Source: Fidelibacterota bacterium (GTDB lineage Bacteria; Verrucomicrobiota; Kiritimatiellia; JAIPIQ01). From it: a stretch of 64,000 nt of DNA. A program made the translations under genes and the position numbers. A model generated the notes under the pieces. It was given only the letters and a program-made list of their open reading frames with translations, searched no databases and was not told the DNA's origin. How positions within the stretch are numbered: the stretch's first letter is position 1; each line of letters starts with the position of its first letter. The stretch is taken from positions 3,422-67,421 of the forward strand of contig JAIPIQ010000001.1 of NCBI GenBank assembly GCA_021734645.1, in the 5' to 3' direction. Shown here piece after piece: positions 18,190-59,288 of this stretch.

Positions 18190-18211
18190 GGGCGCTAAAG
18201 GATAAATTGCA

Positions 18212-18577
18212 ATGATACAGGTACAAACCAATTTGAATGTGGCGGATAACACGGGCGCCCGCCGGGCCATGTGTATCCGGGTGCTGGGCCAGCGCAAGCG
18301 CATGGCTCACATTGGCGATTTGATCGTCGTGACGATCAAGGATGCCCAGCCGCGCGGTATGGTCAAGAAGGGGGAGGTGCGCAAGGCGGTCATCGTGCGC
18401 ACGGCCAATCCCATCCGGCGCGCGGACGGTTCCGAGCTGCGTTTCGATCATAACGCGGTGGTGCTGGTGGACGACCAGCTCAATCCGCGCGGGACGCGGA
18501 TTTTCGGGCCGGTGGCGCGGGAACTGCGCGACCGGAACTACATGAAGATCATATCCCTGGCCCCGGAGGTGTTGTGA
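18212..18577 (+). CDS. rplN: 50S ribosomal protein L14
   Basis: 121 aa, [17 protein letters not shown]... Confidence 0.95.
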
Positions 18578-18858
18578 TGGCGCACGGCAGGCGATTGAAG
18601 GCGCGGTTCAAGCGCGGCGACGAGGTCACGGTTTTGTCCGGCGATGAGGCCGGGAAAAGCGGGAAGATTTTGCAGATGCTGCCGAGCCAGGGCCGGGCAG
18701 TGGTCGAGGGGTTGAACTTGGTCACCAAGCACATGCGCAAGACCCAGGACAATCCCCAGGGCGGGCGGCCGACCAAGGAAGCGCCGCTGCGCCTGTGCAA
18801 ACTGGCGCTGAAGGAACAGGGCAAAGGGGCCGGCGCGACCGGCGGACAAGCGAGGTAA
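18574..18858 (+). CDS. rplX: 50S ribosomal protein L24
   Basis: 94 aa with a KOW motif. Located between L14 and L5. Confidence 0.88.
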
Positions 18859-18863
18859 TTCAG

Positions 18864-19424
18864 ATGGCGTCGCGTTTACAAGAGAAGTACGAGCAACAGG
18901 TGAAGCCGGCCCTGCAGGCCGCCAACCAGTATGCGAATCCCATGCAGGTGCCAAGGATCAAGAAGGTCGTGGTCAACATGGGGGTCAAAACCTCGCTGGA
19001 CAAGGATGCCCTGCAGATCCTGGCCAACGACCTGGGCAAGATCACGGGCCAGAAGCCCGTGATTGCCAAGTCCCGGTTGAGCATTGCCAATTTTCGCCTG
19101 CGCGAGGGCATGCCGGTGGGCATCAAGGTGACCCTGCGCGGTCAGCGCATGTATGAATTTCTGGACCGGCTGATCAACACGGCGTTGCCGCGCATTCGCG
19201 ATTTTCGCGGGATCTCGGCCACGGGGTTTGATGGCCGGGGCAACTTCAGCCTCGGGTTGCGCGAGCAAACCATCTTTCCGGAGATTGACCCGGACAAGAT
19301 CAAGGCCACCCAGGGCATGAACATAACCATCGTTACGGATGCGGCCAGCGATGCCGAGGCGCGCGAGCTGTTGCGCGGCCTGGGCATGCCGTTTGCCGCG
19401 GCGCAGAACGTCGGGCGCGCGTAG
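18864..19424 (+). CDS. rplE: 50S ribosomal protein L5
   Basis: Internal start MASRLQEKYEQQVKPAL... within track ORF 18795..19424. Confidence 0.93.
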   Translation: MASRLQEKYEQQVKPALQAANQYANPMQVPRIKKVVVNMGVKTSLDKDALQILANDLGKITGQKPVIAKSRLSIANFRLREGMPVGIKVTLRGQRMYEFLDRLINTALPRIRDFRGISATGFDGRGNFSLGLREQTIFPEIDPDKIKATQGMNITIVTDAASDAEARELLRGLGMPFAAAQNVGRA

Positions 19425-45672: not shown

Positions 45673-46956
45673 TCATCCCGGTGGTGACAAGTTCTTTCTG
45701 GTTTGTTGTTGCGCATTAGTGGTGCGATATTGCGCAAGGGACACCGGAGGTTCGCGCAGATCCCAGACGAGGCCGAGGCGTTCGAGGGCGCGCAGGATGG
45801 CGTAGGTGATATCCATTTCGCCGGGTCGGAAGCCCTGGCGGGTGGCAATGGGGTAGCGATGGTGGTTGTTGTGCCAACCTTCGCCGAACGTCAGCAGGGC
45901 GAGGATCAGGTTGTTGCCGCTGGTATCCGGGGTGTCGTAGGGGCGGCGCCCGACCAGATGCATGAGGGAGTTGATGCAGAAGGTTGCGTGATAGACCAGG
46001 ACGGTGCTCAGGAAGAAGCCCCAGGCGAGCATCTGGGGGCCGGTGACGTTCCCGGCGGGCCGCGTGGCGGCCAGGGCGGCGCCCAGGCCATACAGGGCGC
46101 CGGCCAGGAGCAGGGGGGGCAGATAGGCGTGGCGGTCAAGCCAGCGCAGTTCGGGAAACCGGGCGAAATCGGGAATGCGTTCGAGGCGGGTGGCCGTATG
46201 GCGGGAACAGAGCAGCCAGCCGATATGCGCCCACCAGAAACCGTCCCGCACGGGCGAATGGATATCCGCATCCTGATCGGCATGCTGGTGGTGGTGACGG
46301 TGATGGGCGGCCCACCAGAGGGGGCCCAGTTGCGCGGCGGTGGCGCCGATGAACGCCAGGACGAACTGGAAGCCGCGGCTGGTGCGGTAGCTCTTATGGG
46401 CGAAGTACCGGTGGTAGCCGCCGGTCAGGGCGAAGACACGCAGGGCATAGAGCAACAGGCAGGCGCTGAGCGCGGCCCAACTGAAACCGACCCAGAACAC
46501 GCTCAGGGCGGCCAGGTGCATCAACAGCAGGGGGGCGGCATCGCGGACGGTGATGCGTTCGTCCGGGCGGCGCGCGCGCCGGGGCGCCGCCGGGGCTTCG
46601 GGATCCGGCGCGCTCGTCAAGCGCTGGCCCGTCTCCAGCTCCAGTTCCGCGGCCCGGCCCGCCGGCAGTTCCAAGGCTTGGCGGGTGCCGCGCGGCGCCC
46701 GGATCAACCGGCCCGGCGGGACATCGGCCCGGATCTTCAGGATTCGGCCCTCGCGGTCCAGGAATACGGCATCAAGCGGGAAGCGCATGGCCAGAGTGTG
46801 CAGGCTGCCGCCGGGCACAAACAACAGGCCGGCCTCCGGCGGGCACGGAAAGCCGAGCCAGCCGCGCAGGCGCGCGCTCAAGGTCCGCGCCCTGCGCACC
46901 CCGCGCAACAACCCAACGCCGTCCCGGTCTATCCTGAGCTTGTCCATACGTTGCAT
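45673..46956 (-). CDS. DUF192 (COG1430) domain fused to a membrane acyl-CoA/lipid desaturase
   Basis: N-terminal ~110 aa match the DUF192 pattern. C-terminal HRYFAH, HHRHHH and HNNHH histidine boxes. Confidence 0.78.
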   Translation of the reverse strand: MQRMDKLRIDRDGVGLLRGVRRARTLSARLRGWLGFPCPPEAGLLFVPGGSLHTLAMRFPLDAVFLDREGRILKIRADVPPGRLIRAPRGTRQALELPAGRAAELELETGQRLTSAPDPEAPAAPRRARRPDERITVRDAAPLLLMHLAALSVFWVGFSWAALSACLLLYALRVFALTGGYHRYFAHKSYRTSRGFQFVLAFIGATAAQLGPLWWAAHHRHHHQHADQDADIHSPVRDGFWWAHIGWLLCSRHTATRLERIPDFARFPELRWLDRHAYLPPLLLAGALYGLGAALAATRPAGNVTGPQMLAWGFFLSTVLVYHATFCINSLMHLVGRRPYDTPDTSGNNLILALLTFGEGWHNNHHRYPIATRQGFRPGEMDITYAILRALERLGLVWDLREPPVSLAQYRTTNAQQQTRKNLSPPG

Positions 46957-47042
46957 TATTCTCTAGCGCCGCCCAGCCCCGAACGCCAGCCCAATCTGTC
47001 CGCTCGACAGTGCCGGCCGACATGCTATGCTGGCCCCGGAAT

Positions 47043-47127
47043 GGGCGAGTGGTGGAATTGGCAGACACGCAAGACTTAGGATCTTGTGCCGCAAGGCGTG
47101 CGGGTTCGAGTCCCGCCCCGCCCACCA
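47043..47127 (+). tRNA. tRNA-Leu (anticodon TAG), type II with a long variable arm, CCA encoded
   Basis: Manually folded. One A-C mismatch in the acceptor stem, T-loop TTCGAGT, anticodon loop CTTAGGA. Confidence 0.8.
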
Positions 47128-47134
47128 ACCCCCG

Positions 47135-47160
47135 GGGCGAACAGAACCCCGTGTTCGCCC
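47135..47160 (+). terminator. Stem-loop (8-bp stem GGGCGAAC/GTTCGCCC, 10-nt loop) directly after tRNA-Leu. Could be a tRNA 3' terminator or an attachment-site remnant.
   Basis: Seen in sequence. Confidence 0.3.
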
Positions 47161-47176
47161 AAAGGACTTTGTGAAC

Positions 47177-48772
47177 ATGTATGAGATGAAGTTCGCCATG
47201 CAGGGCGCGCAGGACAACGGCGAGTTCTTCACCCCGCCCGCGCTCGTCAAGACCCTCGTCAACGTCATCGAGCCGGACCACGGCATCGTCTTCGATCCCG
47301 CCTGCGGCTCAGGCGGCATGTTCGTCCAGTCCAGCCACTTCATCGAGCGCCGTGGCGACCGCGCCGCCCACAAGGTCACTTTCTACGGGCACGAGTACAA
47401 GACGAGCAACATCCGGCTGGCTCTGATGAACCTCGCCGTCCACGCCCTCGAGGGCTCGATCAAGGAGGCCAACACCTTCTATGACGATCCGCACGAGCTG
47501 TTCGGGAAGTGCGACTTCGTCATGGCCAATCCGCCGTTCAACGTGGACAAGGTGGATGCAGGGAAGATCAGGACTGACCGACGCCTGCCGTTCGGATTGC
47601 CGGGCGTGAACAAGGACAAGCAGGTCAGCAACGGGAACTACCTGTGGATCTCGTTCTTCTGGAGCTACCTGAACCAGACCGGCCGCGCCGGGTTTGTCAT
47701 GTCGTCCCAGGCCAGCAGCGCTGGCCACGGCGAGGCCGAAGTCCGCCGCAAGCTCGTCGAAACCGGCGACGTGGACGTGATGATCTCCATCCGCTCCAAC
47801 TTCTTCTACACGCGAACCGTGCCCTGCGAACTCTGGCACTTCGACAAGGGCAAGCCCGCCGCCCGGCGCGACCAGGTGCTGATGATTGACGCCCGGAACA
47901 TCTATCGCAAGGTCACCCGCAAGATTTACGACTTCTCCCCGGAGCAGCAGCAGAACCTCGCCGCCATCGTCTGGCTTTACCGCGGCCAGCCCGACCGCTT
48001 TGTCGGGCTGGTGCAGCAGTACCTCGACCGCACTCTCGCCGAAGCCGCCGCAATAGCCGCTAAGATCGAATCCTTCCGCAAAGCGTGCGCCGCCCTCGCA
48101 ACTGCCGCCGCACCCTTTTTCAAGACCCTGCCCAAAGATTCGCCCCTGCGCGATGGGATCAAGGAACGTGACGATGCGGCCAAGGTTTGTTTCCAAGGCC
48201 TGGATGATCTGATTGCGCGAGTCTCCAAGGATTGGAAGAACTCCTGCGAACCTAACCTCACCGCACAGAAGAAACGGCAGGCCAGCCTGGACGAGCTCGC
48301 CGCTGCCTGCCGGGACCTGGTGAAGGACGCCGACCTCGTCTACAAGCTCGCAGCCCGCGTCTCGGACGCAGCAGAAAAGGATGCCGGGGCCAAGGAGCAC
48401 GACGACTGGGACGGCCGCGCCATCGGGCGGCTGGAGAAAGAACTCGACGCCCGCCGCAAGGAACTGGTCGAACAACTCAAGACCGCCGCCTACTTCGAGC
48501 GGCAGGCCCACTGGCTCCTCTCGCGCTTTCCGGACGGGAAGCTCGTCGCCGTCCCCGGCCTCGTGAAGCTGGTGGACCGCAAGGAAATCGAAGCCGCCGA
48601 CTGGAGCCTCACCCCCGGTCGCTACGTCGGCGTCGCCCCCGTCGAGGACGACGAGGACTTCGACTTCGAGCAGACCCTGCGCGACATCCACACCGAACTC
48701 GCCGACCTGAACAAGGAGGCGGCGGAGTTGGCGGCGACGATTCAGAAGAACTTCGAGGGGCTGGGGATATGA
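47177..48772 (+). CDS. hsdM: Type I restriction-modification N6-adenine DNA methyltransferase subunit, lacking the N-terminal HsdM_N domain
   Basis: Begins at MYEMKF (equivalent to DMYEGLL of EcoKI M). Motif X FFTPP, motif I FDPACGSGGM, motif IV NPPF and the long coiled-coil C-terminal tail ...LTPGRYVG... Confidence 0.85.
   Translation: MYEMKFAMQGAQDNGEFFTPPALVKTLVNVIEPDHGIVFDPACGSGGMFVQSSHFIERRGDRAAHKVTFYGHEYKTSNIRLALMNLAVHALEGSIKEANTFYDDPHELFGKCDFVMANPPFNVDKVDAGKIRTDRRLPFGLPGVNKDKQVSNGNYLWISFFWSYLNQTGRAGFVMSSQASSAGHGEAEVRRKLVETGDVDVMISIRSNFFYTRTVPCELWHFDKGKPAARRDQVLMIDARNIYRKVTRKIYDFSPEQQQNLAAIVWLYRGQPDRFVGLVQQYLDRTLAEAAAIAAKIESFRKACAALATAAAPFFKTLPKDSPLRDGIKERDDAAKVCFQGLDDLIARVSKDWKNSCEPNLTAQKKRQASLDELAAACRDLVKDADLVYKLAARVSDAAEKDAGAKEHDDWDGRAIGRLEKELDARRKELVEQLKTAAYFERQAHWLLSRFPDGKLVAVPGLVKLVDRKEIEAADWSLTPGRYVGVAPVEDDEDFDFEQTLRDIHTELADLNKEAAELAATIQKNFEGLGI
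48704..48772 (+). repeat. hsdM 3'-terminal segment, copy A (authentic end). Its TGA overlaps the ATG of the next gene.
   Basis: Roughly 69 nt, repeated at 49863-49928 and 50673-50741. Confidence 0.8.
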
Positions 48773-49797
48773 GCGACGCACCCGCAAAACTTCCTGGTGA
48801 CTATGCCGCGCTACTGGTCGAGATCAAGGAACGCGTCCGCTCCGCGCAACTCGCCGCTTTCCGGGCGGTCAACAAGGGGCTGGTCGGGCTGTATTGGGAT
48901 ATCGGGCTGATGATTGTCGAACGGCAGGCCGGGGAAACATGGGGGAAGGCAATTGTCCAACAACTGGCTGGAGATTTGCAGCGGGAGTTCCCGGACGTCG
49001 GCGGGTTTTCGGCCTCCAATCTGTGGCGGATGAAGGGATTCTACGAGGCGTATCGCGCCTCCGGAAAACTCGCACCACTGGTGCGAGAAATCGCCTGGAG
49101 TCACAACCTCATCATCTTGGAGCGGTGCAATGAACCGCTGGAGCGCGAGTTCTACCTGCGGATGACCCGCAAATTCGGCTGGTCCAAGAACGTGCTGATC
49201 CACCAGATCGAGAACCAGACCTACGAAAAGAGCCTGCTCGGCCAGACCAACTTCGATAAGGTCTTGACGCCCGAATTGCGCGCCCAGGCCAAGCTGGCCG
49301 TCCGGGATGAGTACAGCTTTGACTTTCTGGAATTGAGCGCAAAGCATTCCGAACGCGAACTCGAACGGGCACTGATTGCGCGCATCGAGCATTTCCTCCG
49401 CGCCATGGGCGGCATGTTTGCCTTTGTCGGCAGTCAGTTCCGGCTGGAAGTCGAGGGCAAGGAGTATTTCATAGACCTGCTCCTGTTCCATCGCCGCCTC
49501 AAATGCTTGGTCGCCATCGAGCTCAAGATCGGCGAGTTCGAGCCCGAGTTCATCGGCAAGATGCAGTTCTATCTGACGGCCCTGGATAAGCAGGTTCGCG
49601 AGGAGGGCGAGAACCCGGCCATCGGCATCATCCTCTGCAAGGAAAAGAAACGCACCGTCGTGGAATACGCCCTCGCACCCGTCAACAAACCCATCGGTGT
49701 CGCCACCTACCAGATCGTCAAACGACTGCCCAAAGCCCTCAAAGGCCAACTCCCCAGTCCCGAACAGATCGTCAAATTGCTGGAGGAGGGCGTGTGA
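48769..49797 (+). CDS. DUF1016/YhcG-family PD-(D/E)xK nuclease inserted between hsdM and hsdS
   Basis: DUF1016_N-like N-terminus (LYWDIGLMIVERQ...GFSASNLWRMKGFY). C-terminal D...ELK core (FIDLLLFH...VAIELKIGEF). Confidence 0.82.
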   Translation: MSDAPAKLPGDYAALLVEIKERVRSAQLAAFRAVNKGLVGLYWDIGLMIVERQAGETWGKAIVQQLAGDLQREFPDVGGFSASNLWRMKGFYEAYRASGKLAPLVREIAWSHNLIILERCNEPLEREFYLRMTRKFGWSKNVLIHQIENQTYEKSLLGQTNFDKVLTPELRAQAKLAVRDEYSFDFLELSAKHSERELERALIARIEHFLRAMGGMFAFVGSQFRLEVEGKEYFIDLLLFHRRLKCLVAIELKIGEFEPEFIGKMQFYLTALDKQVREEGENPAIGIILCKEKKRTVVEYALAPVNKPIGVATYQIVKRLPKALKGQLPSPEQIVKLLEEGV

Positions 49798-49862
49798 AAG
49801 ACGGCAAATCATCCTGCCGCGCCAATGGTGCAAGACACACTGGCACAATTATATCGCCCGCC

Positions 49863-49928
49863 GCCCTGAAGACTCAGGTGGCGGAACTGGCCGCGACGAT
49901 TCAGAAGAACTTCGAGGGGCTGATGTGA
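49863..49928 (+). repeat. hsdM 3'-terminal segment, copy B (partial, diverged). Encodes ...AELAATIQKNFEGLM*
   Basis: A 30-nt identical core, gcgacgattcagaagaacttcgaggggctg, shared with copy A. Confidence 0.8.
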
Positions 49929-49940
49929 AGAGGGTCATGC

Positions 49941-50017
49941 AAAGGACAAAAAGGACGAAAAGGACAAAAAACGCCGCGGCGCCACTCTTTTTCGTTTCTC
50001 TGGTCCTTTTTGTCCTT
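49941..50017. repeat. Long imperfect inverted repeat / hairpin (AAAGGACAAAAAGGAC ... CGCCGCGGCG ... GTCCTTTTTGTCCTTT) immediately upstream of the four-helix-bundle gene
   Basis: Seen in sequence. The palindromic centre lies at 49972-49981. Confidence 0.6.
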
Positions 50018-50031
50018 TCAGTCCCTTTCTT

Positions 50032-50619
50032 ATGGAGTTCTCCATGACAACCGACGGCTTCATTCCGGCGCATGGCGGGTTCCAGGCATTGAAATCCTAT
50101 CAGAAGGCGGTCATTGTCTATGATGCCACCGTGCGATTCTGCGACCGGTTCATCGCCAAGCGTGGCGACCGCACGCGCGATCAGATGATCCAGGCGGCGC
50201 GGTCGGGCAAGCAGAACATTGTCGAGGGCAGCCAGTTCTCCGGCACATCTAAGGAAATAGAATTGAAGCTGACCAATGTGGCCCGCGCCAGCCTGGCGGA
50301 GCTGGCGGAAGACTACCGCGACTTCCTGCGCTTACGTGGCGCGGAGGAATGGCCAGCCACGCATCCGTATGCCCAACGCCTGCGCGCGCTCAACCGGCAG
50401 CCCGGCGCCGGCTATGAGACGTTTCGCAAAGGGATCGAGCATGAAGACCCACTTATCGCCGCGAACGTCATCCTGGGACTGACCCGCGTGACCTGCTTCC
50501 TGCTGGACCGCCAGCTCAAGCATCTGGAAAAGGCCTTTATTGAAGAGGGCGGTTTGCGCGAACGCATGACCCGCGCCCGCCTCGACCGCCGAGCCCAACA
50601 ACGAGGCCACACCCCATGA
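50032..50619 (+). CDS. Four-helix-bundle protein (TIGR02436 / 23S rRNA intervening-sequence protein family)
   Basis: KSYQKAV...NIVEGSQFSGTSKEIELKLTNVARASLAEL family signature. Flanked by the direct repeat TCCTTTTTGTCC (50004-50015 and 50636-50647). Confidence 0.72.
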   Translation: MEFSMTTDGFIPAHGGFQALKSYQKAVIVYDATVRFCDRFIAKRGDRTRDQMIQAARSGKQNIVEGSQFSGTSKEIELKLTNVARASLAELAEDYRDFLRLRGAEEWPATHPYAQRLRALNRQPGAGYETFRKGIEHEDPLIAANVILGLTRVTCFLLDRQLKHLEKAFIEEGGLRERMTRARLDRRAQQRGHTP

Positions 50620-50672
50620 CCCCCACCCCCTTCCGTCCTTTTTGTCCCTTGGCCCCAAATGACGCCCCGGCT

Positions 50673-50741
50673 GACCTGAACAAGGAGGCGGTGGAGTTAG
50701 CGGCAAAGATTCAGCGGAACCTCGAGGGGTCGGGGATATGA
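50673..50741 (+). repeat. hsdM 3'-terminal segment, copy C (diverged, ...DLNKEAVELAAKIQRNLEGSGI*). Its TGA overlaps the hsdS ATG.
   Basis: Aligned by eye to copy A. Confidence 0.8.
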
Positions 50742-51910
50742 AGTGGCGACCGCACCAACTCCGAGATCTCTGCTGTCAGGTAGTCTCCGGCGGAACACCG
50801 TCAACAAGCCAATCTCATTTCTATGGCGGCCCAATTCCATGGCTCCGAACACAGGAGGTCACTTTCAACCGTATAGCGGAAACAGAAATGACCATCACGG
50901 AGGATGGATTGGCGAACTCAACAGCCAAATGGGTCCCCGAGAACAGCGTCATCGTCGCGATGTACGGCAACTCTGCAGGCCGCGTTGCAACCAATTTGAT
51001 TCCCCTGACCACGAATCAAGCCTGCTGTAACCTCATTATCGATTCCAGCAAAGCTGACTACCGCTTCATCTTCTACCGGCTAATGCTCGATTACAACGTG
51101 CTGCACCAGATGGCAAAAGGGGCCGCTCAAAACAATCTCAACGCAGGACAGATCAAAGCATACACAATACAAGCGCCCTCCGTGTCTGAACAGGGCGCGA
51201 TTGCTGAAGTTGTGTCCGCCTACGACGATCTGATCGAAAACAACCGGCGGCGGATGAAGCTGCTGGAGGAGGCCGCCCGGCAGTTGTACCGCGAGTGGTT
51301 CGTCCGCCTCCGCTTTCCCGGCCATGAACGCGCCAAGATCAAGAATGGCCTGCCCGAGGGGTGGGAGAGACAACCATTGGGAGACTTGGCCGATGTCACG
51401 ATGGGCCAAAGTCCCGAATCATCGTACTACAATGAGACTGGCGAAGGGCTTCCATTCCACCAAGGCGTTGCCGATTTCGGAGATCGTTTTGTTTCTCACC
51501 GCGTATTCACCACAGCCCTGAACCGTCTTGCTGAACCCAGCGATATCCTTTGTAGCGTTCGCGCTCCGGTTGGTCGGCTCAATCTGACGCTCGACAAGAT
51601 AGTGATCGGGCGGGGCCTCTCCGCTATCCGAAGTCGCACAAACCATCAGTCGCTGTTGTTCTACCAACTGCGGAACCACTTCTTCAAAGAGGATTTGATC
51701 GGCGCGGGATCAATCTTCGCATCGGTAACGAAAGCGGAGTTTCTTCGACAGGAGATTCTTGTCCCACCCAAGCATGTAGCCGATGCATTCGAAGATGTGT
51801 CCCGCCCACTTGACGACCAACTGCGGCTACAGAATGAGCAGAACCAGAAGCTCCGCTCTGCCCGTGATTTGCTGCTGCCGAAGCTGATGAGCGGGGAGCT
51901 TGCGGTATGA
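50738..51910 (+). CDS. hsdS: Type I restriction-modification specificity subunit with two target-recognition domains
   Basis: 390 aa with a central conserved coiled-coil repeat (IENNRRRMKLLEEAARQLYREWFVRLRFPGHE) and a repeat of it at the C-terminus. Visibly lower GC than the flanks. Confidence 0.87.
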   Translation: MKWRPHQLRDLCCQVVSGGTPSTSQSHFYGGPIPWLRTQEVTFNRIAETEMTITEDGLANSTAKWVPENSVIVAMYGNSAGRVATNLIPLTTNQACCNLIIDSSKADYRFIFYRLMLDYNVLHQMAKGAAQNNLNAGQIKAYTIQAPSVSEQGAIAEVVSAYDDLIENNRRRMKLLEEAARQLYREWFVRLRFPGHERAKIKNGLPEGWERQPLGDLADVTMGQSPESSYYNETGEGLPFHQGVADFGDRFVSHRVFTTALNRLAEPSDILCSVRAPVGRLNLTLDKIVIGRGLSAIRSRTNHQSLLFYQLRNHFFKEDLIGAGSIFASVTKAEFLRQEILVPPKHVADAFEDVSRPLDDQLRLQNEQNQKLRSARDLLLPKLMSGELAV

Positions 51911-52000
51911 GAGGTATGAGGGGTCTGAGGGCCTGCGGAGCAGGGCCATTGGGCTTGTCGCCGCGGAAGCAACCGGTGTATGATTGAACCCGGGTGAGAA

Positions 52001-52780
52001 ATGAGCACGGTACGGACTATAGAATTCGTTCTTCGAGGAAAGGTCGGTGGCGTCGAACTGACGCCGCGCATGATCGGTTTGTCGCAATTTAACGAGTTCA
52101 ACCAGCAGGTCGAAGCGTTTATCGCGGGTTCCCAGCGGGGCAAGCAGAACGAAACGCATGTGGAGGTCGCCGAGGGTTCCTACAAGCTCCGGGTTACGCT
52201 GGCCGCGGCGGCGGCGCTGGCGCTCCAACCGGACCTCGTGCTCATGGCGCGCGACGACGCGCTCGGCGAGCTGGACCCGAAGCGGGCCGAGGTGGTGTCC
52301 AAGTGGCAGGCGTCCGCCCGGCGGGATGACGGCTATGAGTACGAGATCCGGCCCGATCTGGAGGCCCTGCCCAAGGTCATGTTGACGAAAAGGACCGACT
52401 ACCGGATCGGGGCGGCGAGCCCCTGGGTGACGGTCGAAAAATACCTTTTTGGGGTGGTCGAGGACATGGGTGGGGCGCAGAAGGCGAACATTCACCTGCG
52501 GTTGCGCGATACGGGGCAGACCGTGATTGTCGGCGCGTCTCAGGACTTCCTCCGCGATCAGTCCGAAAACCGTGTCTATCGGCAGGCGCTCTTGCGCGTC
52601 AAGGCTGAACAGCACTTCAAAACCGGTCAGTTGCGCAATGTCCGCCTCCTTGCGTTCGAGGATTACGCTCCCTCCTACGACGAGAACGCGCTCAATGCGT
52701 TTTCGTACCAGGGAACTCAGGCGTGGCGCGACATTCCGGATGCCGTGGCTTGGGTCCGCGAGCAGAGGGGAGGTCGCTGA
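52001..52780 (+). CDS. Uncharacterised 259-aa protein embedded between hsdS and hsdR. No recognisable family. Appears to have an internal two-fold repeat.
   Basis: Intact ORF, co-oriented. Its stop lies 3-28 nt before the hsdR start. Confidence 0.5.
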   Translation: MSTVRTIEFVLRGKVGGVELTPRMIGLSQFNEFNQQVEAFIAGSQRGKQNETHVEVAEGSYKLRVTLAAAAALALQPDLVLMARDDALGELDPKRAEVVSKWQASARRDDGYEYEIRPDLEALPKVMLTKRTDYRIGAASPWVTVEKYLFGVVEDMGGAQKANIHLRLRDTGQTVIVGASQDFLRDQSENRVYRQALLRVKAEQHFKTGQLRNVRLLAFEDYAPSYDENALNAFSYQGTQAWRDIPDAVAWVREQRGGR

Positions 52781-52808
52781 TGGGTGCCGGGGATTGAACG
52801 GCGTTCTG

Positions 52809-55800
52809 ATGGCCTACACCGACATCAACAGCGAGGACCGGCTGGTGCAGGTGACCTTCGCCGAGCATCTGGAACGGCAGCTTGGTTGGGAGAGCGTGTT
52901 TGCCTGGAATGAGGAAACCTTCGGGCCTAACGGTACGCTGGGGCGGGCAGACACGCGCGAGGTGGTCCTGACCCGCGATTTGCGGGCGGCTGTGGGCCGA
53001 CTCAACCCCGACCTGCCCGCGACGGCCCTGGACGAGGCAGTACGCACGATGTCGCGACACGACTTCACGCGGTCGTTGCTACAACACAACCAGGATTTCC
53101 ACGGCTTCATGCGCGACGGCGTGCCGGTCTCCTATCGCGACGCGCAGGGAGTTCTGCGCGAGGAACGGGCGCGGGTGCTTGACTTCCGCAACGCGGCGAA
53201 CAACCGGTTCCTGGCGGTGCGCGAGCTGAAGCTCACCAGTCTGCGCATGCCGAGCTACAACCGCCGGGCGGACCTGGTCTACTTCGTCAACGGCCTGCCG
53301 CTGGTGTTTATTGAGCTGAAAGCCGTTTACAAGAATATTCGGGCCGCTTTTGATGGCAACCTGCGCGATTATATGGACGAGCACATCGTCGCCCACGCCT
53401 TTCATCACAATGCGTTTCTGGTCGTCAGCAACGGACACCGCGCCCGGTACGGAGCGATCACCAGTGCGTGGGACCATTTCGCGGAGTGGAAACGCCTCGA
53501 TGAGGCGGACAAGGGCAGCGTCGAGGCAGAGGTGCTCCTGAACGGGATGCTGGCGCATGACCGCCTGCTGGACATTGTCGAGAATTTCATCCTGTTCGAC
53601 GCCAGCAAACCGGGCCAGACCCGCAAGATCGTGGCACGCAACCACCAGGTTCACGGGGTCAACCAGGCGGTGGCGGCGGTGCGGCGGCAGGAGGAGTTGA
53701 AACAGGCGTTTCCGCCTGAGCTGCGCCTGAAGTCCCGCACCATTGAACTGCTGCCGCGCATGGCGGCCGAAGTCTCGCCAAGGGGCGACGCCCTGTACGA
53801 AGATCCGGTCGTCGAGTGGCCCGAGATGGCCGAGTCATTGAGCCTGCTTAAATACGTCGAACCGGCCCATCCGGACCTGGGAAGACTGGGCGTGTTCTGG
53901 CATACGCAGGGCAGCGGCAAGTCCTACTCGATGGCCTTTTTCGCGGAGAAGGTCCGACGCACGATATCGGCCAAGTTCACCTTCCTGCTGATGACCGACC
54001 GCCAGGATCTCGACGGCCAGATATTCGACACGTTCCGCGGCTGCGGCGTGGTGGACGAGAAGTCCCCCCGCGCCGCGACGGGCGAAGATCTCAAGCATCT
54101 CCTGGGAGAGAACCACCGCTATATCTTCAGCCTGATCCACAAGTTCAACCAGGATGTGGACCCGCGCAAGCCCTACAGTCCGCGGGACGACATCATCGTG
54201 ATCTCCGACGAGGCCCACCGGACGCAGGCCGGCAAACTGGCCCGCAACATGCGGCTGGCTCTGCCGAATGCCTCCTTTATCGGGTTCACCGGCACACCCC
54301 TGTTCAAGCACGACCACCTCACCCGGCGCATTTTCGGCACCTACGTCTCGCGCTACGACTTCAAACGGTCCGAGCAGGACGGCTCGACCGTCAAACTCGT
54401 GTACGAGAACCGGGGCGAGAAACTGGGCCTGGCCCGGCTCGACCTTAACGACCGCATCGCCGCCGCCATTGCCAAAGCTGAACTGAACCCCGACGAGGAA
54501 CTCCTGCTGGAGAAACTGCTCGGGCAGGACTACGAGGTGATCACGGCCCGCAATCGCCTCAATAAAATCGCATTCGATTTCGTCGAACACTGTGCCACCC
54601 GGTGGGAATCGGGAAAATCCATGTTCGTCTGCCTGGATAAGATCACCTGCGGCCGCATGCTCAAACGGGTCAGGCGCCTCTGGAAACTCAAATTGGCGCG
54701 GGTGCAGCAGGTGCTCAACCGCAAGCAAACCGCGCTGGCGACCCAGACCAACGAAGACCATCGTGAACGCATTGCAAAAGAAGTGGCTTGGTTGCGAGGA
54801 CAGGCGAACTGGCTGCGGGAGACGATGGTTGAACTCGTGGTATCCGAGGGGCAGAACGAAATCGCCGACTTCAAGAAGTGGGGGATTGACATCCTGCCGC
54901 ACCGGGCGCTGATGAAGCAGGGGTTCGAGACCCCGGACGGCAAGCGGGTGGATGTGGAAACCGCTTTCAAGGATCCGGCCCATCCGTTCCGCGTGGCGAT
55001 TGTCTGCGCCATGTGGCTGACCGGTTTCGATGTCGAATGTCTCTCTACGCTGTACATAGACAAGCCCATGAAGGCGCACACGCTCATGCAGGCCATCGCG
55101 CGGGCCAACCGGGTTTATCCCGGCAAGGATTTCGGCCTGATTGGGGCAAAGGGCTTCGCCAAAATTGCGGCGCTCGCCGACGGCGTGGAAGCGGTCACCA
55201 GCGCCCGAGACGAGGGACGGCGGCGGTTCGAAATCATGGCGCGCCAGGTCTTCGACCGTTTCAAGGCGCTGCTCATGGAACCGGCCGCCTTTGCTTTCGC
55301 AGAGCGGCACGACAACATTGAGGCGATTTACAAGAAACTTCAGGAACGGCGCGATACCGCTGACGTTACCGAGTTGCTCAAGGAACTACAGCGGGTGGTC
55401 AACGAGGCCATTCGTGCCGCCGCCCCCGGCGCCGACCAGGCGGATGCCAAACTTTACGACTTGAGCGCCGTGGACCTGGAAAAACTGCGCGCCGAGTTTG
55501 CCAAGAAGGCCACGCACAAGGCCACGGTCCTGGAGGACATCCGGCAGATCGTCGAAAAGAAACTGGCGCAGATGCTCGCCCGGAACCCGCAGCGCATGGA
55601 CTATTACAAGAAGTACTCCGAAATCATTGCCGACTACAACCACGACAAGGATCGGGTTACGATTGAAGAAACCTTTGCCCGGCTGGTTGACTTGGCTGCG
55701 AGCCTGGACGCCGAATCCCGGCGCGCCGCCGAAGAAGGCCTGAGCGAAGAAGAATACGCCCTGTTCTGCCTGCTACAGAAGGACCGTATCAGCAAGGCTG

Positions 55801-56045
55801 ACCGGGACCGGATCAAACTCGCCAGCCGCCAGCTCTACGATTCGCTCCGAGCATTGCTCGCCCGACGCGAGCAATGGACCCAGAAGGAACAGACGCAGGC
55901 GGAAGTCGAGACCCTGATTCTGGACCACCTGTTTGTGGCGCTGCCGACGCCACCCTACACGGAAGCAGAGAAACAGGCTGCGGCAAAACAGGTCTACCAG
56001 TTCGTCTGGCAGCAATCCGCCAGTGGGGTGTTTGTGGCGGCTTGA
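52809..56045 (+). CDS. hsdR: Type I restriction enzyme endonuclease/helicase subunit (alternative TTG start at 52794)
   Basis: HsdR_N-like N-terminus, Walker A HTQGSGKS, DEAH VISDEAHRTQ, roughly 1078 aa. Confidence 0.9.
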   Translation: MAYTDINSEDRLVQVTFAEHLERQLGWESVFAWNEETFGPNGTLGRADTREVVLTRDLRAAVGRLNPDLPATALDEAVRTMSRHDFTRSLLQHNQDFHGFMRDGVPVSYRDAQGVLREERARVLDFRNAANNRFLAVRELKLTSLRMPSYNRRADLVYFVNGLPLVFIELKAVYKNIRAAFDGNLRDYMDEHIVAHAFHHNAFLVVSNGHRARYGAITSAWDHFAEWKRLDEADKGSVEAEVLLNGMLAHDRLLDIVENFILFDASKPGQTRKIVARNHQVHGVNQAVAAVRRQEELKQAFPPELRLKSRTIELLPRMAAEVSPRGDALYEDPVVEWPEMAESLSLLKYVEPAHPDLGRLGVFWHTQGSGKSYSMAFFAEKVRRTISAKFTFLLMTDRQDLDGQIFDTFRGCGVVDEKSPRAATGEDLKHLLGENHRYIFSLIHKFNQDVDPRKPYSPRDDIIVISDEAHRTQAGKLARNMRLALPNASFIGFTGTPLFKHDHLTRRIFGTYVSRYDFKRSEQDGSTVKLVYENRGEKLGLARLDLNDRIAAAIAKAELNPDEELLLEKLLGQDYEVITARNRLNKIAFDFVEHCATRWESGKSMFVCLDKITCGRMLKRVRRLWKLKLARVQQVLNRKQTALATQTNEDHRERIAKEVAWLRGQANWLRETMVELVVSEGQNEIADFKKWGIDILPHRALMKQGFETPDGKRVDVETAFKDPAHPFRVAIVCAMWLTGFDVECLSTLYIDKPMKAHTLMQAIARANRVYPGKDFGLIGAKGFAKIAALADGVEAVTSARDEGRRRFEIMARQVFDRFKALLMEPAAFAFAERHDNIEAIYKKLQERRDTADVTELLKELQRVVNEAIRAAAPGADQADAKLYDLSAVDLEKLRAEFAKKATHKATVLEDIRQIVEKKLAQMLARNPQRMDYYKKYSEIIADYNHDKDRVTIEETFARLVDLAASLDAESRRAAEEGLSEEEYALFCLLQKDRISKADRDRIKLASRQLYDSLRALLARREQWTQKEQTQAEVETLILDHLFVALPTPPYTEAEKQAAAKQVYQFVWQQSASGVFVAA

Positions 56046-56188
56046 TGCGCGGCGCGGCGCAGGCTGCCGGACGCGGACGGTGAATGGAAAGTGGGCCGCG
56101 GGAACAGCAACCCCCCAATAGCGAAAAACCGCGCACTTTTTACTTGACGGGGCTGGCGGCGCTGCATAGGGTGCCCGTCGCCTCAGAC

Positions 56189-56264
56189 GCCCCTATCGTC
56201 TAGTGGCCCAGGACGCCGGGTTCTCATCCCGGAAACAGGGGTTCAATTCCCCTTGGGGGTGCCA
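56189..56264 (+). tRNA. tRNA-Glu (anticodon CTC), CCA encoded
   Basis: Manually folded. D-arm GTCTAGTGGCCCAGGAC is typical of tRNA-Glu. T-loop TTCAATT. Confidence 0.75.
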
Positions 56265-56269
56265 TTGCT

Positions 56270-56515
56270 TCATTCCGGATCGGGAATCCATTCGAAAACC
56301 ACGGTGGGATCGTGTCCGGTGGCGGGGCAGGTCGCGCAGGCGCCCGGGATGGCCCGGCCGCCGCACCCCACCAGCCGCCGCTGGATGCGGCCGTGCCGAC
56401 AGGCCATGGCCAGCATGTCGTCCAGCGCCTCCGGCGCGATTTCCAGTATCCGGGCCAGCTCGTCCAGGGTCACCTTCTGGCGGGTGGCAATTTCTCTCAA
56501 GGCGGCTCTCAGCAT
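56270..56515 (-). CDS. FeoC-like winged-helix / Cys-cluster regulator, orphan (no feoAB nearby)
   Basis: Aligns with FeoC: ...LDELARILEIAPEALDDMLAMACRHGRIQRR...GCGG...CATCP. Track ORF extends to 56536. Confidence 0.55.
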   Translation of the reverse strand: MLRAALREIATRQKVTLDELARILEIAPEALDDMLAMACRHGRIQRRLVGCGGRAIPGACATCPATGHDPTVVFEWIPDPE

Positions 56516-56673
56516 CGGTCTCCCTCCATCGTTCATGCGTTCCCATACAGTTTACCCGCGGCGGGCGCGAACGCAAGCGCCGAGCGCGCGCCGGGTGTTT
56601 CGGGTCGGGGGCGGACATTTTTTTGTGGCCATCACCGCGCGCTGTGTTATATTGGTGGTCGTTGACGGGAACC

Positions 56674-56748
56674 AGGCGCGGTAGCCAAGTGGTAAGGCGG
56701 AGGTCTGCAAAACCTTTATTCAGCGGTTCGAATCCGCTCCGCGCCTCC
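56674..56748 (+). tRNA. tRNA-Cys (anticodon GCA), CCA encoded
   Basis: Manually folded. Acceptor GGCGCGG/CCGCGCC, anticodon loop CTGCAAA. Confidence 0.8.
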
Positions 56749-56780
56749 AATTATTCCCTTTTCACCCGAAAGGAAGCGCA

Positions 56781-58106
56781 ATGGAACGACCCAACATACT
56801 GTACATTCTGGCGGACGACCTGGGCTGGGGCGATTTGAGTCTGCACGGCTCGCCCATTCGCACGCCGAACATTGACCAGTTGGCGCGGGAAGGGGTCGAG
56901 CTGACGCAGCACTATGTTTGCCCCATGTGCACGCCGACGCGCGCCTCGCTGTTGACGGGCCGGTATCCGAGTCGTTTCGGCCCCCATGGCACGGTGCCGT
57001 CGAATGCGCCGGTGTTCCCGGACGGCTACCAGACGCTGGCCACGATCCTGCGCGACGCGGGGTACGACACGGGTCTGTTCGGCAAATGGCATTTGGGCTC
57101 CGCCCCGCAGTATGGTCCGAATCAGTACGGGTTCAATACGGCCTACGGCAGTCTGGCGGGCGGGATTGATCCGTACAGCCATCGGTACAAGCGCGGCGAG
57201 TTTTCGGTGGCGTGGCATCGCAACGGCACGCTGGTGGAAGAGCGGGGGCATGTCACCGATTTGATCCTGAACGAGGCCCGGGAGTGGATCGAGACCCGGA
57301 ATCAGCCCTGGTTCTGTTATGTGCCGTTCACGGCCGTGCATATTCCCATCAAGCCGACACAGGAGTGGATGGCGCGGTACTATCCCGAGCAGTTCGACGA
57401 CGATCCGTTGAAGGACCGTTCGTACAAGATGTATGCGGCCTACACCAGCCATATGGATCATGCCATCGGGCAACTGCTCGAGACCCTCGAGCAATTGGGC
57501 CAGCGCGAGAACACGATCATCGTGTTTTCTTCGGACAATGGCGCGGTCAACGAAACACCGCTGCATGCCACGGACCAATATCCCGGTTGGCAGGAAGCGT
57601 ATCCGCGGCTGGGATCGAACGCGCCCTGGCGCGGGGTCAAGGCACAATTGTACGAGGGCGGCATCCGCACGCCCACCCTCGTCAACTGGCGCAGTCGGCT
57701 GACGCCGGGGCGGATGGAACACCCCGTGCAGGTCACGGATTGGATGCCCTCGTTCAGCGCGCTGGTCGGCGCGCCGCCCAAGGAAGATCCCCGGTACGAT
57801 GGCCGGGACATCTGGCCCTTGATCACGGGGGAAACCAAGACGCCCGCGCCGCGGCATCTGTTCTGGAACTTCAAGGGCGATCAGCATCTCGGGTTGCGGC
57901 TGGGCGACTGGAAACTGATCGTCAACCACAAGCAGGGCCATTCGAAACAGGAGCTGTTCAACCTGGCGGACGATCCGTATGAGCAGAATGACCAAGCCAG
58001 CGATCGGCCCGACAAGGTCGCGGAGCTGGCGGCGTTGATTGCGGCAGAGCGGCAAGCGGACAATTCGTCGGCCCGGTCTGATGTGGCCGGGCCCCGGATG
58101 CCCTAA
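56781..58106 (+). CDS. Arylsulfatase-family sulfatase with no obvious signal peptide
   Basis: CPMCTPTRASLLTGR (C-x-P-x-R formylglycine signature) and the sulfatase N-terminal LADDLGWGD. Confidence 0.88.
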   Translation: MERPNILYILADDLGWGDLSLHGSPIRTPNIDQLAREGVELTQHYVCPMCTPTRASLLTGRYPSRFGPHGTVPSNAPVFPDGYQTLATILRDAGYDTGLFGKWHLGSAPQYGPNQYGFNTAYGSLAGGIDPYSHRYKRGEFSVAWHRNGTLVEERGHVTDLILNEAREWIETRNQPWFCYVPFTAVHIPIKPTQEWMARYYPEQFDDDPLKDRSYKMYAAYTSHMDHAIGQLLETLEQLGQRENTIIVFSSDNGAVNETPLHATDQYPGWQEAYPRLGSNAPWRGVKAQLYEGGIRTPTLVNWRSRLTPGRMEHPVQVTDWMPSFSALVGAPPKEDPRYDGRDIWPLITGETKTPAPRHLFWNFKGDQHLGLRLGDWKLIVNHKQGHSKQELFNLADDPYEQNDQASDRPDKVAELAALIAAERQADNSSARSDVAGPRMP

Positions 58107-58112
58107 GCGCCT

Positions 58113-59288
58113 TCAGCCATTGTCCGGCCGGGCGTCCTTGCGGGCCAGCTTCTGGGCCACGGCCTCGACGACCTGCTCGACTGTGAGATGCTGCATGCAG
58201 TGGGCTTGGTCCGTGCAATAGCGGTCCCCGTAATGCGGGCAGGTGTGTGCCTGGCGGTCATACACGCAGTTGGCGGGATAGGTGGCGGGTTGCACGACGG
58301 TATTGAACGCGCCGGTGGGATCATAGGGGCGGCAGAACACGGGATTGGTGGGGCCGAACAGGGAAACCGTATGATGGGCCCGGTACCAGCGGCCGTTGGC
58401 GGCCTGAACCGCGCCGGGCGCGTCGGGCGCCGTCTCGCTGGCGGAACCGGCCATGTGATTGGCGAAGCTGTCATTCCCGACGGAGACCGTGAAGGCGCCG
58501 GAATGCAGCAGGCAGGCGTCAACCGCCAGGGTGGTTTCCTCGACCAGGTTGGTGACCAGGCCATCTTGAAAATGAGTGCGGGCGACCTGGCGGTCATAGT
58601 CCTGATTGGGGGCGAAGCGGCCGGCGCCCATGAGCACCACTTTGCACCCCAGGTCGTGCACAAGGATTTCGGCCAGGCGGCGGAAATGGGTCGCCGGCCA
58701 GATTTTACTGAACTGCGCGGATCCGGGATTGAGCGCCACGCTTTTCACTTCGCGCAGGCCCTCGCGCCGCGCAATGGCCTCGGCGGCGTCCATGGTCTGC
58801 GGGCTGAAAGGCAGGGCAAAGGAAACCGGGGTGTGCGCCACGCCCAGGTCGCGCAGGCCGCTCAGGTAGGCCTCAACCATGTGGCCGTCGGTCCGGCGCG
58901 GCAGGCACTGAGCCCGGGGGTGCAGCAGGCGCGCCAGCAGATACTCGCGCGCATCGCGCCGGTGCGGAATCAGCACCGTGCGGTCTCCTCCCCAGGGCAT
59001 GTACAGGCCCGTCTTGCCGCGGCCCTTGAGGTCGAGGAAGGTGGCGGTGCCGTCGGCCCGGGTTTGTCGGCGCACGGCCCGCGCCGTCGCCCGCCGCGTC
59101 GCCGGGCAGTCCACGTAGACGGCCTCGAGCAGGCCGTTCTTCATGATCTCGGCCAGGGGCTGCTGGACCTGCGAGACAACCAGTGAAACCGACTCGAACC
59201 GGGTCTTGAGGGCGTGAATGGTCGGCACGATCCAGACCAGGTCGCCCAGCCAGCCGGAATAGACAATCAGGATCCGATTCGGGTTCAT
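58113..59288 (-). CDS. Glycosyltransferase family 9 (heptosyltransferase-like) with a C-terminal Cys/His-rich extension
   Basis: Start at MNPNRILIVYSGWLGD, ...SLFGPTNP..., tail C..C..CPHYGDRYC..HC. Confidence 0.78.
   Translation of the reverse strand: MNPNRILIVYSGWLGDLVWIVPTIHALKTRFESVSLVVSQVQQPLAEIMKNGLLEAVYVDCPATRRATARAVRRQTRADGTATFLDLKGRGKTGLYMPWGGDRTVLIPHRRDAREYLLARLLHPRAQCLPRRTDGHMVEAYLSGLRDLGVAHTPVSFALPFSPQTMDAAEAIARREGLREVKSVALNPGSAQFSKIWPATHFRRLAEILVHDLGCKVVLMGAGRFAPNQDYDRQVARTHFQDGLVTNLVEETTLAVDACLLHSGAFTVSVGNDSFANHMAGSASETAPDAPGAVQAANGRWYRAHHTVSLFGPTNPVFCRPYDPTGAFNTVVQPATYPANCVYDRQAHTCPHYGDRYCTDQAHCMQHLTVEQVVEAVAQKLARKDARPDNG

Follow-up and report, generated by a model that had tools for sequence, protein, structure and literature searches.

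Organisation of the hsd locus

In the window, by which we mean the whole 64-kb stretch of DNA analysed, the genes hsdM, hsdS and hsdR of a Type I restriction-modification (R-M) system are encoded together in one locus bordered by tRNA genes on both sides, and related islands are likewise tRNA-adjacent (Table 1). The hsdM gene is present in a short form, referred to here as hsdM', and is followed by a gene for a YhcG/DUF1016-type nuclease, two remnants of an hsdM 3' end, a gene for a four-helix-bundle protein flanked by inverted repeats, hsdS, a conserved open reading frame and hsdR. A literature search for cassettes combining a four-helix-bundle gene with an hsdM tail returned nothing relevant. 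The G+C content of the island is 55–64%, as against 66–72% in the upstream flank, and an independent Logan contig confirms the junction at its downstream end.

Table 1. Features of the tRNA-Leu to tRNA-Glu stretch, in window coordinates.
Feature	Position	Strand	Remarks
Sigma-70-like promoter candidate	47004..47031	+	TCGACA-16-TATGCT with TG, just 5' of tRNA-Leu; from a consensus scan, putative function
tRNA-Leu (anticodon TAG)	47043..47127	+	CCA encoded; ARAGORN; Rfam tRNA, 52.7 bits
9-bp G+C-rich hairpin	47134..47160	+	GGGCGAACA-N8-TGTTCGCCC; no T-run; unique in the window
SD-like AAAGGA	47161..47166	+	10 nt 5' of ATG 47177; read from the sequence, putative function
hsdM'	47177..48772	+	531 aa; NCBI MCF7837058.1; without family residues 1–165
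Left breakpoint	47183..47184	+	homology to full-length hsdM starts; orthologue codon 166
yhcG/DUF1016 PDDEXK nuclease gene	48769..49797	+	PADLOC candidate PDC-S02; ATG overlaps hsdM stop
hsdM 3' remnant, copy 1	49860..49931	+	81% to last 72 nt of hsdM
Inverted repeats	49940–49963 and 50628–50651		flank the four-helix-bundle gene
Four-helix-bundle protein gene	50032..50619	+	TIGR02436 and TIGR04258 suffix domain
hsdM 3' remnant, copy 2	50670..50741	+	86% to last 72 nt of hsdM; ATGA overlaps hsdS start
hsdS	50738..51910	+	390 aa; two target-recognition domains; apparently intact
Conserved ORF	52001..52780	+	259 aa; function unknown; between hsdS and hsdR; also in L002
hsdR	52809..56045	+	1078 aa; nuclease, Walker A (GSGKS), DEAH and motif VI present; in-frame 62-aa deletion
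hsdR deletion junction	55138..55143	+	186-nt in-frame loss, GLI|GAKGFA; orthologues have TGATYG at both ends
tRNA-Glu(CTC)	56189..56264	+	downstream island border; ARAGORN, Rfam; 143 nt 3' of hsdR

hsdM lacks its 5' end

The first-pass annotation proposed that hsdM starts at the catalytic domain, that the HsdM_N region is gone and that tRNA-Leu lies just upstream, all of which is confirmed by Pfam, PADLOC and ARAGORN. The distance from the tRNA gene to the first ATG is 49 nt, and two starts are plausible, ATG 47177 (MYEMKF...) first and then ATG 47186 (MKFAMQG...). In the Pfam search that the annotation had suggested, N6_Mtase (PF02384) is the sole domain, residues 5–264 covering profile positions 16–271 of 311 (E=2e-60), and HsdM_N (PF12161) is absent; profile positions 1–15, the start of the first helix of the catalytic domain, are missing as well. 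The PADLOC MTase_I model PDLC03035 is matched over profile positions 164–653 of 653 only, and the score against the NCBIfam equivalog TIGR00497 (66.2 bits, cut-off 242.75) carries little weight for a family this divergent. The remainder of the protein has the makings of a gamma-class N6-adenine methyltransferase, with the N6_Mtase domain and, read in the translation, motif I (DPACGSGGMF) and motif IV (NPPF). Also kept are the long, helical C-terminal part and the tail that is predicted to bind HsdS; right up to its final residue this tail is collinear with the tails of orthologues, and the WSLTPGRYVG motif is included. An AlphaFold2 model based on a 32-sequence alignment has a mean pLDDT of 66.9, with values below 50 over much of residues 1–250, and its catalytic half is too unreliable for use.

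The closest HsdM homologues (the best 120 listed; 75–88% identity) are almost all about 690–750 aa long, typically about 693 aa, and carry both PF12161 and PF02384; in the full-length orthologue P0002, for instance, HsdM_N spans residues 12–135 and N6_Mtase begins at residue 153. The segment missing from hsdM' is nearly invariant across 31 orthologues. Homology to the orthologues at the DNA level begins abruptly, in the middle of a helix, at about position 47183 (47185 in blastn). Residue 9 of HsdM' corresponds to EcoKI residues 141–143 and residue 6 to residue 188 of EcoR124 HsdM, in agreement with the earlier alignment of the N-terminus to EcoKI HsdM around residues 125–160. The HsdM_N region is thus wholly gone, as had been proposed, but the loss amounts to 165 aa in this family and not to about 125. 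One related contig, L088, begins inside hsdM and is uninformative for that reason.

The hsdM reading frame is open from position 47027 and runs through tRNA-Leu and the hairpin, and it was rightly noted that no N-terminal domain can be encoded there. A tblastn search with orthologue N-termini over the whole 64-kb window found no trace of HsdM_N, and a profile of 112 orthologue N-termini run against its six frames gave a best E-value of 8.1, which leaves no upstream in-frame HsdM_N start in any frame of the window.

The retained part of the gene shows no sign of extra decay. HsdM' deviates at one of 219 conserved columns (median 2), pairwise dN/dS over the retained 528 codons is 0.08–0.15, as among intact orthologues, and no excess of dN was found on the branch leading to the window's hsdM. 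Hence, the truncation happened recently, or constraint on the stump persists.

The tRNA-Leu junction

The breakpoint in hsdM' sits 56 nt 3' of tRNA-Leu. It had been suggested that the 5' part of the gene was lost when the island recombined at the tRNA, a proposal that gains no support from these data: no integrase is encoded between the two tRNA genes, where every ORF is accounted for, the direct repeat of the tRNA-Leu 3' end that would be expected as an att site at the far border of a tRNA-integrated island was not found with up to 3 mismatches in 26 nt, and the searches returned no relative close enough to rebuild the ancestral junction from. The 8-nt CAACCCCC match in front of tRNA-Glu is too small to be taken for an att site, and no attR was found in the related contig L086. 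The A6:C67 mismatch in the acceptor stem of tRNA-Leu was also considered as an integration scar and set aside, the tRNA-Leu of L002 being mismatched at 6:67 too (U:U). An integrase and a direct repeat could have been lost in the same deletion. When the upstream desaturase gene was used as query of genome contigs to find a relative with the ancestral tRNA-Leu junction, none of the matches listed exceeded 54% identity; metagenome scans with the spacer hairpin and with the tRNA-Leu core gave 0 matches, and the spacer had no match in a plasmid collection. The junction between the tRNA gene and hsdM is known from a single MAG assembly, the independent Logan contig (run SRR12088349) spanning positions 49620–58512 only; this contig is identical in sequence, and the run is therefore probably the source. 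Judged by its sequence, the sigma-70-like candidate 5' of tRNA-Leu is a possible source of read-through into hsdM'.

An in-frame deletion in hsdR

HsdR had been taken to be intact, and it looks so until it is aligned to its homologues. Alignment to L002 reveals a 62-aa gap just past helicase motif VI. The 119 best HsdR homologues are 1121–1172 aa long, compared with 1078 aa here, and none of the 119 has 20 or more gap columns in the larger block, of 40 columns, of the missing segment, which is strongly conserved among them (VDYNGxLKSLREALAQYA...EEIVAPIEERV). All HsdR domains are found by Pfam, with the T1R_D3-like match stopping at position 153 of 158 and the T1RH-like_C match beginning at profile position 39, so that the full-length architecture of PD-(D/E)xK nuclease, two RecA-like motors and C-terminal helical domain is interrupted. 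To judge from where it lies and how conserved the lost residues are, the deletion most probably inactivates the motor or uncouples it. A further 11 deviations occur at columns conserved in at least 97% of the sequences (median 3), the third highest count among 120; this excess of substitutions is modest. Like the lesion in hsdM, the one in hsdR leaves the reading frame open. The hsdR gene of L002 is itself broken, by a 190-aa deletion and a frameshift.

The damage to hsdR bears on an argument made in the first-pass annotation, namely that a crippled methyltransferase combined with an intact hsdR would be toxic. With 62 conserved residues lost from HsdR itself, the argument loses its force and no toxicity paradox arises.

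Comparison with characterised Type I systems

The locus shares its gene set, hsdM, hsdS and hsdR, with the classical Type I R-M systems EcoKI and EcoR124I. The catalytic domain of HsdM' can be aligned with M subunits of solved structure (3khk, 7vru, 7bst and 2y7c), and HsdR with its EcoR124I counterpart over the nuclease, the motor and motif VI. In contrast to EcoKI, in which the N-terminal domain comprises residues 1–153, HsdM' has no equivalent of approximately residues 1–136, and HsdR is missing 62 residues after motif VI. The HsdM family as such also differs from the classical M subunits, by a helical insertion of about 170 aa that precedes the C-terminal tail, an intact member having 693 aa.

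PacII M1M2S (PDB 7VRU/7VS4; PMC9613975) ranks second among the solved relatives of the catalytic domain (E=7e-33), and its M subunit, with an N-terminal domain, a catalytic domain and a C-terminal tail, has the same architecture as the family. Full methylation by PacII requires an interface that the two M subunits build from their N-terminal and catalytic domains, and point mutations at this interface, including some that lie in the N-terminal domain, lower methylation (PMC9613975), whereas HsdM' has no N-terminal domain at all. More generally, the N-terminal domains of Type I M subunits bridge the two M subunits, close the clamp over the DNA and influence coupling to restriction, and the r-m* mutations map to this domain (PMC2647291). 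According to the accounts in PMC2647291 and PMC12707154 of the EcoKI HsdM m* and r-m* point mutants (Kelleher et al. 1991), the domain governs sensing of the methylation state, and some of the mutations abolish restriction; methylation is retained in these mutants.

Probable erosion of a Type I island and alternative explanations

Taken together, we hypothesize that the 9-kb tRNA-Leu(TAG)–tRNA-Glu(CTC) stretch is a horizontally acquired Type I R-M island that is being eroded, with a truncated M and a damaged R subunit, a reading to which we assign a probability of roughly 0.75. A deletion or illegitimate recombination would have ended on the right at hsdM codon 166 and on the left 56 nt 3' of tRNA-Leu, and this same event would have removed HsdM's N-terminal domain, part of the first catalytic helix and the DNA upstream, including the promoter and possibly other island genes. 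The 62-aa loss from hsdR would be a microhomology-mediated in-frame deletion at TGATYG, and the R lesion probably came first. Owing to the AAGGA and the ATG present at the junction, the stump should still be translatable, and transcription may occur by read-through from the tRNA-Leu promoter. It is unlikely that HsdM' makes a competent partner in restriction.

Several other explanations were weighed. That the short form is natural, belonging to a family that never had the N-terminal domain, was one of the two alternatives offered initially, and a few representatives of 50%-identity clusters, of about 546–552 aa, do align from near their N-termini (P0249, P0255). Yet the close relatives, at up to 88% identity, are almost all full-length with HsdM_N, nucleotide homology stops abruptly mid-helix at 47183, and no clade sharing the HsdM' start was seen among the matches inspected. 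The 583-aa relatives P0027 and P0036 were considered as such a family and rejected: in L087, as in L001, the two short relatives inspected, hsdM is split by a 1-nt frameshift, with the HsdM_N ORF directly upstream and the genes otherwise collinear. We give this explanation almost no credence and, going by the alignments, favour the other alternative, a 5' loss by deletion with its right end at codon 166. The presence in L001 and L087 of the HsdM_N part and the rest as two overlapping ORFs might also suggest that HsdM is split and that its N-terminal domain is supplied in trans by a separate gene elsewhere; this is very improbable given that those splits are frameshifts in collinear genes and that the 64-kb window holds no HsdM_N coding sequence. 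A full-length hsdM obscured by misassembly of the tRNA/hsdM junction is hardly more plausible. The source is a MAG contig, the Logan contig starts at 49620 and does not reach the junction, and records of the HsdM' and YhcG proteins come from NCBI only. A chimeric join, on the other hand, would require shared sequence. The tRNA is the sole such element nearby, repeated or conserved, and it lies 56 nt off the breakpoint, so that with a join there, too, sequence other than hsdM would precede hsdM'; in addition, neither the spacer nor the hairpin occurs a second time in the window and the ORF has a clean start at the junction.

The most probable of these alternatives, though still an unlikely one, is that HsdM' is still active, binding HsdS via its C-terminal tail, methylating without the N-terminal domain and being expressed from the tRNA-Leu promoter as a solitary, restriction-free methylase. 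The catalytic motifs and tail are intact, as is hsdS, the gene shows no substitution excess and has the dN/dS of intact orthologues, an SD-like AAGGA and an ATG lie at the junction, and the promoter-like site 5' of the tRNA is followed by no T-run terminator before hsdM'. Moreover, the EcoKI m* mutations in the N-terminal domain leave methylation in place (PMC2647291), but those are point mutations, whereas here the whole domain is deleted. Against activity stand the near-invariance of this domain in the family, its role as the M-M interface in closed complexes, where point mutations reduce methylation (PMC9613975), the partial loss of the first N6_Mtase helix (profile positions 1–15) and the lack of any family of such short forms among the matches inspected, while a recent deletion accounts equally well for the absence of decay. 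From the sequences, the unrelaxed hsdM', the frame-keeping lesions and the intact-looking hsdS also fit a used M'S methyltransferase or very recent events. If HsdM' were active, the N-terminal domain would be dispensable for methylation, and the locus would illustrate how an R-M system can turn into a solitary epigenetic methylase.

Erosion of the island, the reading we prefer, makes the locus a case of ordinary decay and not a new type of short methylase. Truncated hsdM genes have been described in S. aureus islands, e.g. vSa-beta (PMC6805111), where, as here, a Type I modification gene is truncated in a horizontally acquired island near tRNA genes. The present locus differs in organism and family, and in that the truncated ORF is long, undecayed and provided with a start codon, and is paired with an in-frame deletion in hsdR. 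It is a clean case of R-M island erosion, with lesions in both R and M that each leave an open frame, and scoring it as an active Type I defence would be an error. The NCBI record names the protein 'SAM-dependent methyltransferase' without mention of the 5' truncation. Erosion of hsd genes is common in this family, hsdM being frameshift-split in L001 and L087 and hsdR broken in L002.

The 5' end of hsdM is missing

The gene hsdM' is an hsdM that has lost its 5' end, and it lies in a Type I restriction-modification (R-M) island that is decaying and in which hsdR has also been deleted in part. As the first-pass annotation stated, its product starts at the catalytic domain and lacks HsdM_N: Pfam matches N6_Mtase alone (residues 5-264, profile positions 16-271 of 311, E=2e-60) and not HsdM_N, the NCBIfam hsdM profile TIGR00497 aligns from profile position 191, and the top PADLOC Type I methyltransferase model covers HsdM' by positions 164-653 of 653 only. 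Alignments to solved structures agree, with residues 5, 6 and 9 of HsdM' corresponding to residue 215 of 3khk, residue 188 of EcoR124 HsdM and about residue 141-143 of EcoKI HsdM, respectively, the last lying within the block around 125-160 to which the start had been assigned. Proteins of the family read ...SGDVFGRINEYFLMKFAMQGAQDNGEFFTPP, and the window enters at MKFAMQG, residue 166; likewise, DNA homology to the full-length hsdM of two related loci (L002, L001) begins abruptly at ~47183 (G ATG AAG), 5' of which the window is unrelated to either. Hence, 165 residues are absent, comprising the entire N-terminal domain and some 13 residues at the start of the catalytic-domain profile, so that the loss had been recognized correctly and its size, put at ~125 aa, underestimated. 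The region matters to the family, as residues 1-165 are nearly invariant across 31 orthologues. No remnant was found within the 64-kb window, consistent with the earlier view that no HsdM_N is encoded upstream: tblastn with orthologue N-termini matched only 10 shared residues at 47186, and an HMM of 112 orthologue N-termini gave no match in any frame (best E=8.1).

The open frame of hsdM' begins at 47027 and runs through tRNA-Leu and a hairpin, as described before, to the stop at 48772. The earliest usable starts are ATG 47177 (MYEMKFAMQG...), from which NCBI annotates the ORF as MCF7837058.1, 'SAM-dependent methyltransferase', and ATG 47186. The former is preceded by AAAGGA 10 nt upstream and separated from the end of tRNA-Leu by 49 nt, in line with the ~50 nt first reported. 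A sigma-70-like site is present at 47004-47031, directly 5' of tRNA-Leu, and no T-run terminator was found between the tRNA and hsdM', so transcription by read-through past tRNA-Leu is possible.

Features of the R-M island and its borders in the window
Feature	Coordinates	Strand	Remarks
DUF192 (residues 20-114) and fatty-acid desaturase (159-369) fusion gene	45673-46956	-	divergent from tRNA-Leu
tRNA-Leu(TAG)	47043-47127	+	ARAGORN; Rfam tRNA 52.7 bits
9-bp G+C-rich hairpin	47134-47160		without T-run; occurs once in the window
hsdM'	47177-48772	+	531 aa
Terminal 72 nt of hsdM	48701-48772		ADLNKEAAELAATIQKNFEGLGI and stop, ending ATATGA
yhcG/DUF1016 PDDEXK nuclease gene	48769-49797		PADLOC phage-defence candidate PDC-S02, E=1e-147
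hsdM-tail copy, 81%	49860-49931		after yhcG
Four-helix-bundle gene	50032-50619		23S rRNA intervening-sequence protein family, TIGR04258 suffix domain
hsdM-tail copy, 86%	50670-50741		after four-helix-bundle gene, overlapping hsdS start
hsdS	50738-51910
Conserved 259-aa ORF	52001-52780		between hsdS and hsdR
hsdR	52809-56045
In-frame 186-nt deletion in hsdR	55138-55143		unique among 119 homologues
tRNA-Glu(CTC)	starts 56189

Truncation, short family or assembly error

A naturally N-truncated M subunit had been offered as the alternative to a lost 5' part, and the abrupt end of homology to full-length genes argues for the loss. The best 120 homologues are 75-88% identical across the entire query, and nearly all are ~690-750 aa long with both PF12161 (HsdM_N) and PF02384; such full-length relatives include P0002 (693 aa, 87% identical), with HsdM_N at 12-135 and N6_Mtase from 153. 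The short relatives inspected are 1-nt frameshift splits. P0001 (528 aa) immediately follows a 164-aa HsdM_N ORF in L001, where a 1-nt gap relative to L002 splits hsdM at codon ~150-165 (L001 1446-3526), and P0036 (583 aa) follows a 110-aa HsdM_N ORF in locus L087, where a 1-nt deletion shifts the frame at codon ~110 (L087 7672-9752), the position at which the homologue P0027 also begins. Full-coverage relatives among 1.84 billion cluster representatives align from their own residues ~161-182, a couple of isolated 546-552-aa forms being the sole exceptions. We therefore reject a naturally short HsdM family.

That the junction between tRNA-Leu and hsdM is an assembly artefact is very improbable. 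It is known from the assembly of a single MAG, and an independent Logan contig of run SRR12088349, 100% identical to 49620-58512, confirms the deletion in hsdR as well as the island's downstream border but starts 3' of the tRNA-Leu/hsdM junction. However, a chimeric join requires shared sequence, and the only conserved element, tRNA-Leu, lies 56 nt from the breakpoint; a join at tRNA-Leu would, moreover, still give a truncated hsdM.

The MAG is labelled Candidatus Marinimicrobia/Neomarinimicrobiota. The window's G+C is 60-72%, it contains a sulfatase gene, and the nearest sequences to its R-M genes come from Verrucomicrobiota/Opitutaceae. Among the matches listed, the desaturase neighbour has none above 54% identity in GTDB representatives, and the best genome matches to the DUF192-desaturase fusion cover the desaturase part only. 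Possibly the MAG is mislabelled, or its lineage has been sampled poorly.

A second lesion, in hsdR

The downstream hsdR, previously taken as intact, encodes 1078 aa, compared with 1121-1172 aa in the best 119/119 homologues. Between GKDFGLI and GAKGFAKIAALADG of the window's HsdR, L002 carries 62 extra residues (VDYNGILKSLREALAQYALGDEEGDGEEIVAPIEERVKALNDAIEETEKHLRACGFDPARLP), a segment present in 8/8 and 6/6 homologues in two alignments; none of the 119 homologues has at least 20 gap columns in its larger (40-column) block. The deletion removes a conserved strand and linker, starting in the strand after helicase motif VI (QAIARANR), where the alignment to EcoR124I HsdR ends (FGNIV 699-703); correspondingly, the T1R_D3-like Pfam match ends at position 153 of 158 and T1RH-like_C begins only at 39. 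In orthologues, TGATYG is present at either end of the 186 nt, pointing to a microhomology-mediated deletion. Among HsdR columns with at least 97% conservation, 11 deviate in the window's protein (family median 3; third highest of 120), and its dN to an outgroup is raised only slightly. We infer that HsdR is disabled or uncoupled, which removes the argument that a crippled methyltransferase beside an intact HsdR would be toxic.

Origin of the truncation

The island has 55-64% G+C, compared with 66-72% in the upstream flank, and occupies exactly the interval from tRNA-Leu(TAG) to tRNA-Glu(CTC). Related hsdMSR islands likewise adjoin tRNA genes: tRNA-Leu(TAG) is located 1.9 kb upstream in L002 (8037-8120) and L003, tRNA-SeC about 770 nt upstream in L085 (9132-9228), and tRNA-Glu(CTC) plus a neighbouring tyrosine integrase gene about 5 kb upstream in L086 (4966-6403). 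Such tRNA neighbours occur in four genomes unrelated to one another, with tRNA-Leu(TAG) in two of them and tRNA-SeC or tRNA-Glu(CTC) in one each. A tRNA-associated mobile island may have occupied the tRNA-Leu/tRNA-Glu interval, its tRNA-proximal part and the hsdM 5' end being deleted later. The window's island has no integrase gene, no repeat of the tRNA-Leu 3' end was found in the window, and no close relative showing the ancestral tRNA-Leu junction is among the listed desaturase matches (0 metagenome matches to the hairpin or to the tRNA core). Erosion is common at loci of this family: L001 and L087 have an hsdM split by frameshifts, and hsdR of L002 is broken by a 190-aa deletion and a frameshift (16150-18995). 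Truncated hsdM genes are also known from S. aureus islands (PMC6805111), and the window's locus represents ordinary genome erosion, an already known kind of event.

Condition of the remaining hsdM

HsdM' deviates in 1 of 219 highly conserved columns (family median 2), its pairwise dN/dS over the retained 528 codons (0.08-0.145) is in the range among intact orthologues, and its branch has no excess dN; judged from these rates, the truncation is recent relative to dS ~0.5, or else selection still acts on the stump. An AlphaFold2 model was not interpreted, its pLDDT being <50 across large parts of the catalytic half. In the M.EcoKI model, the M-M interface, which bridges DNA and closes the clamp, is made up of the N-terminal domains (aa 1-153) of HsdM; the EcoKI m* mutations are located in this domain, some being r- and hinting at contact with HsdR, and the C-terminal region is required for assembly with HsdS (PMC2647291). 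In PacII M1M2S, N-terminal and catalytic domains jointly form an interface present in the closed state, at which point mutations lower methylation (PMC9613975), and the N-terminal domain acts in maintenance preference and coupling to restriction (EcoSal review, PMC12707154). Since HsdM' keeps the C-terminal assembly region, it could still bind HsdS. Closing the clamp should be difficult for it, and its coupling to restriction should suffer too, since some N-terminal-domain mutations abolish restriction. Methylase activity of the stump in the absence of an N-terminal domain, the sole reading of the locus with some novelty, is unlikely.

Possible cassettes between hsdM and hsdS

The order hsdM-yhcG-hsdS recurs in the contig of P0027, yhcG being embedded in the R-M operon. 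The 259-aa ORF has 82% nucleotide identity to L002 14811-15590 and, apart from one sub-threshold NCBIfam match, no match in Pfam, NCBIfam, PADLOC, PHROG or PDB sequences; it is an accessory gene, as yet uncharacterised, of this family of Type I systems. The 72-nt hsdM tail is repeated behind both genes that separate hsdM from hsdS in the window, and L001 has a remnant after its four-helix-bundle gene (about 4257-4322); in every copy, this remnant included, homology begins at the identical base (GCnGACCTGAAC). No remnant occurs in L085-L087, where hsdS directly follows hsdM, or in L002, where the intervening gene overlaps both. A gene plus hsdM tail looks like a modular cassette swapped at the M/S junction via tail recombination. 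The four-helix-bundle gene is flanked by 24-nt inverted repeats (88% complementary; within 49940-50028 and at 50628-50651), with a long A/G-rich hairpin upstream, and the entire unit (50002-50728) shares 83% identity with L001 3601-4312. This stem-flanked organisation, similar to that of rRNA intervening sequences, suggests that the unit is a mobile cassette.
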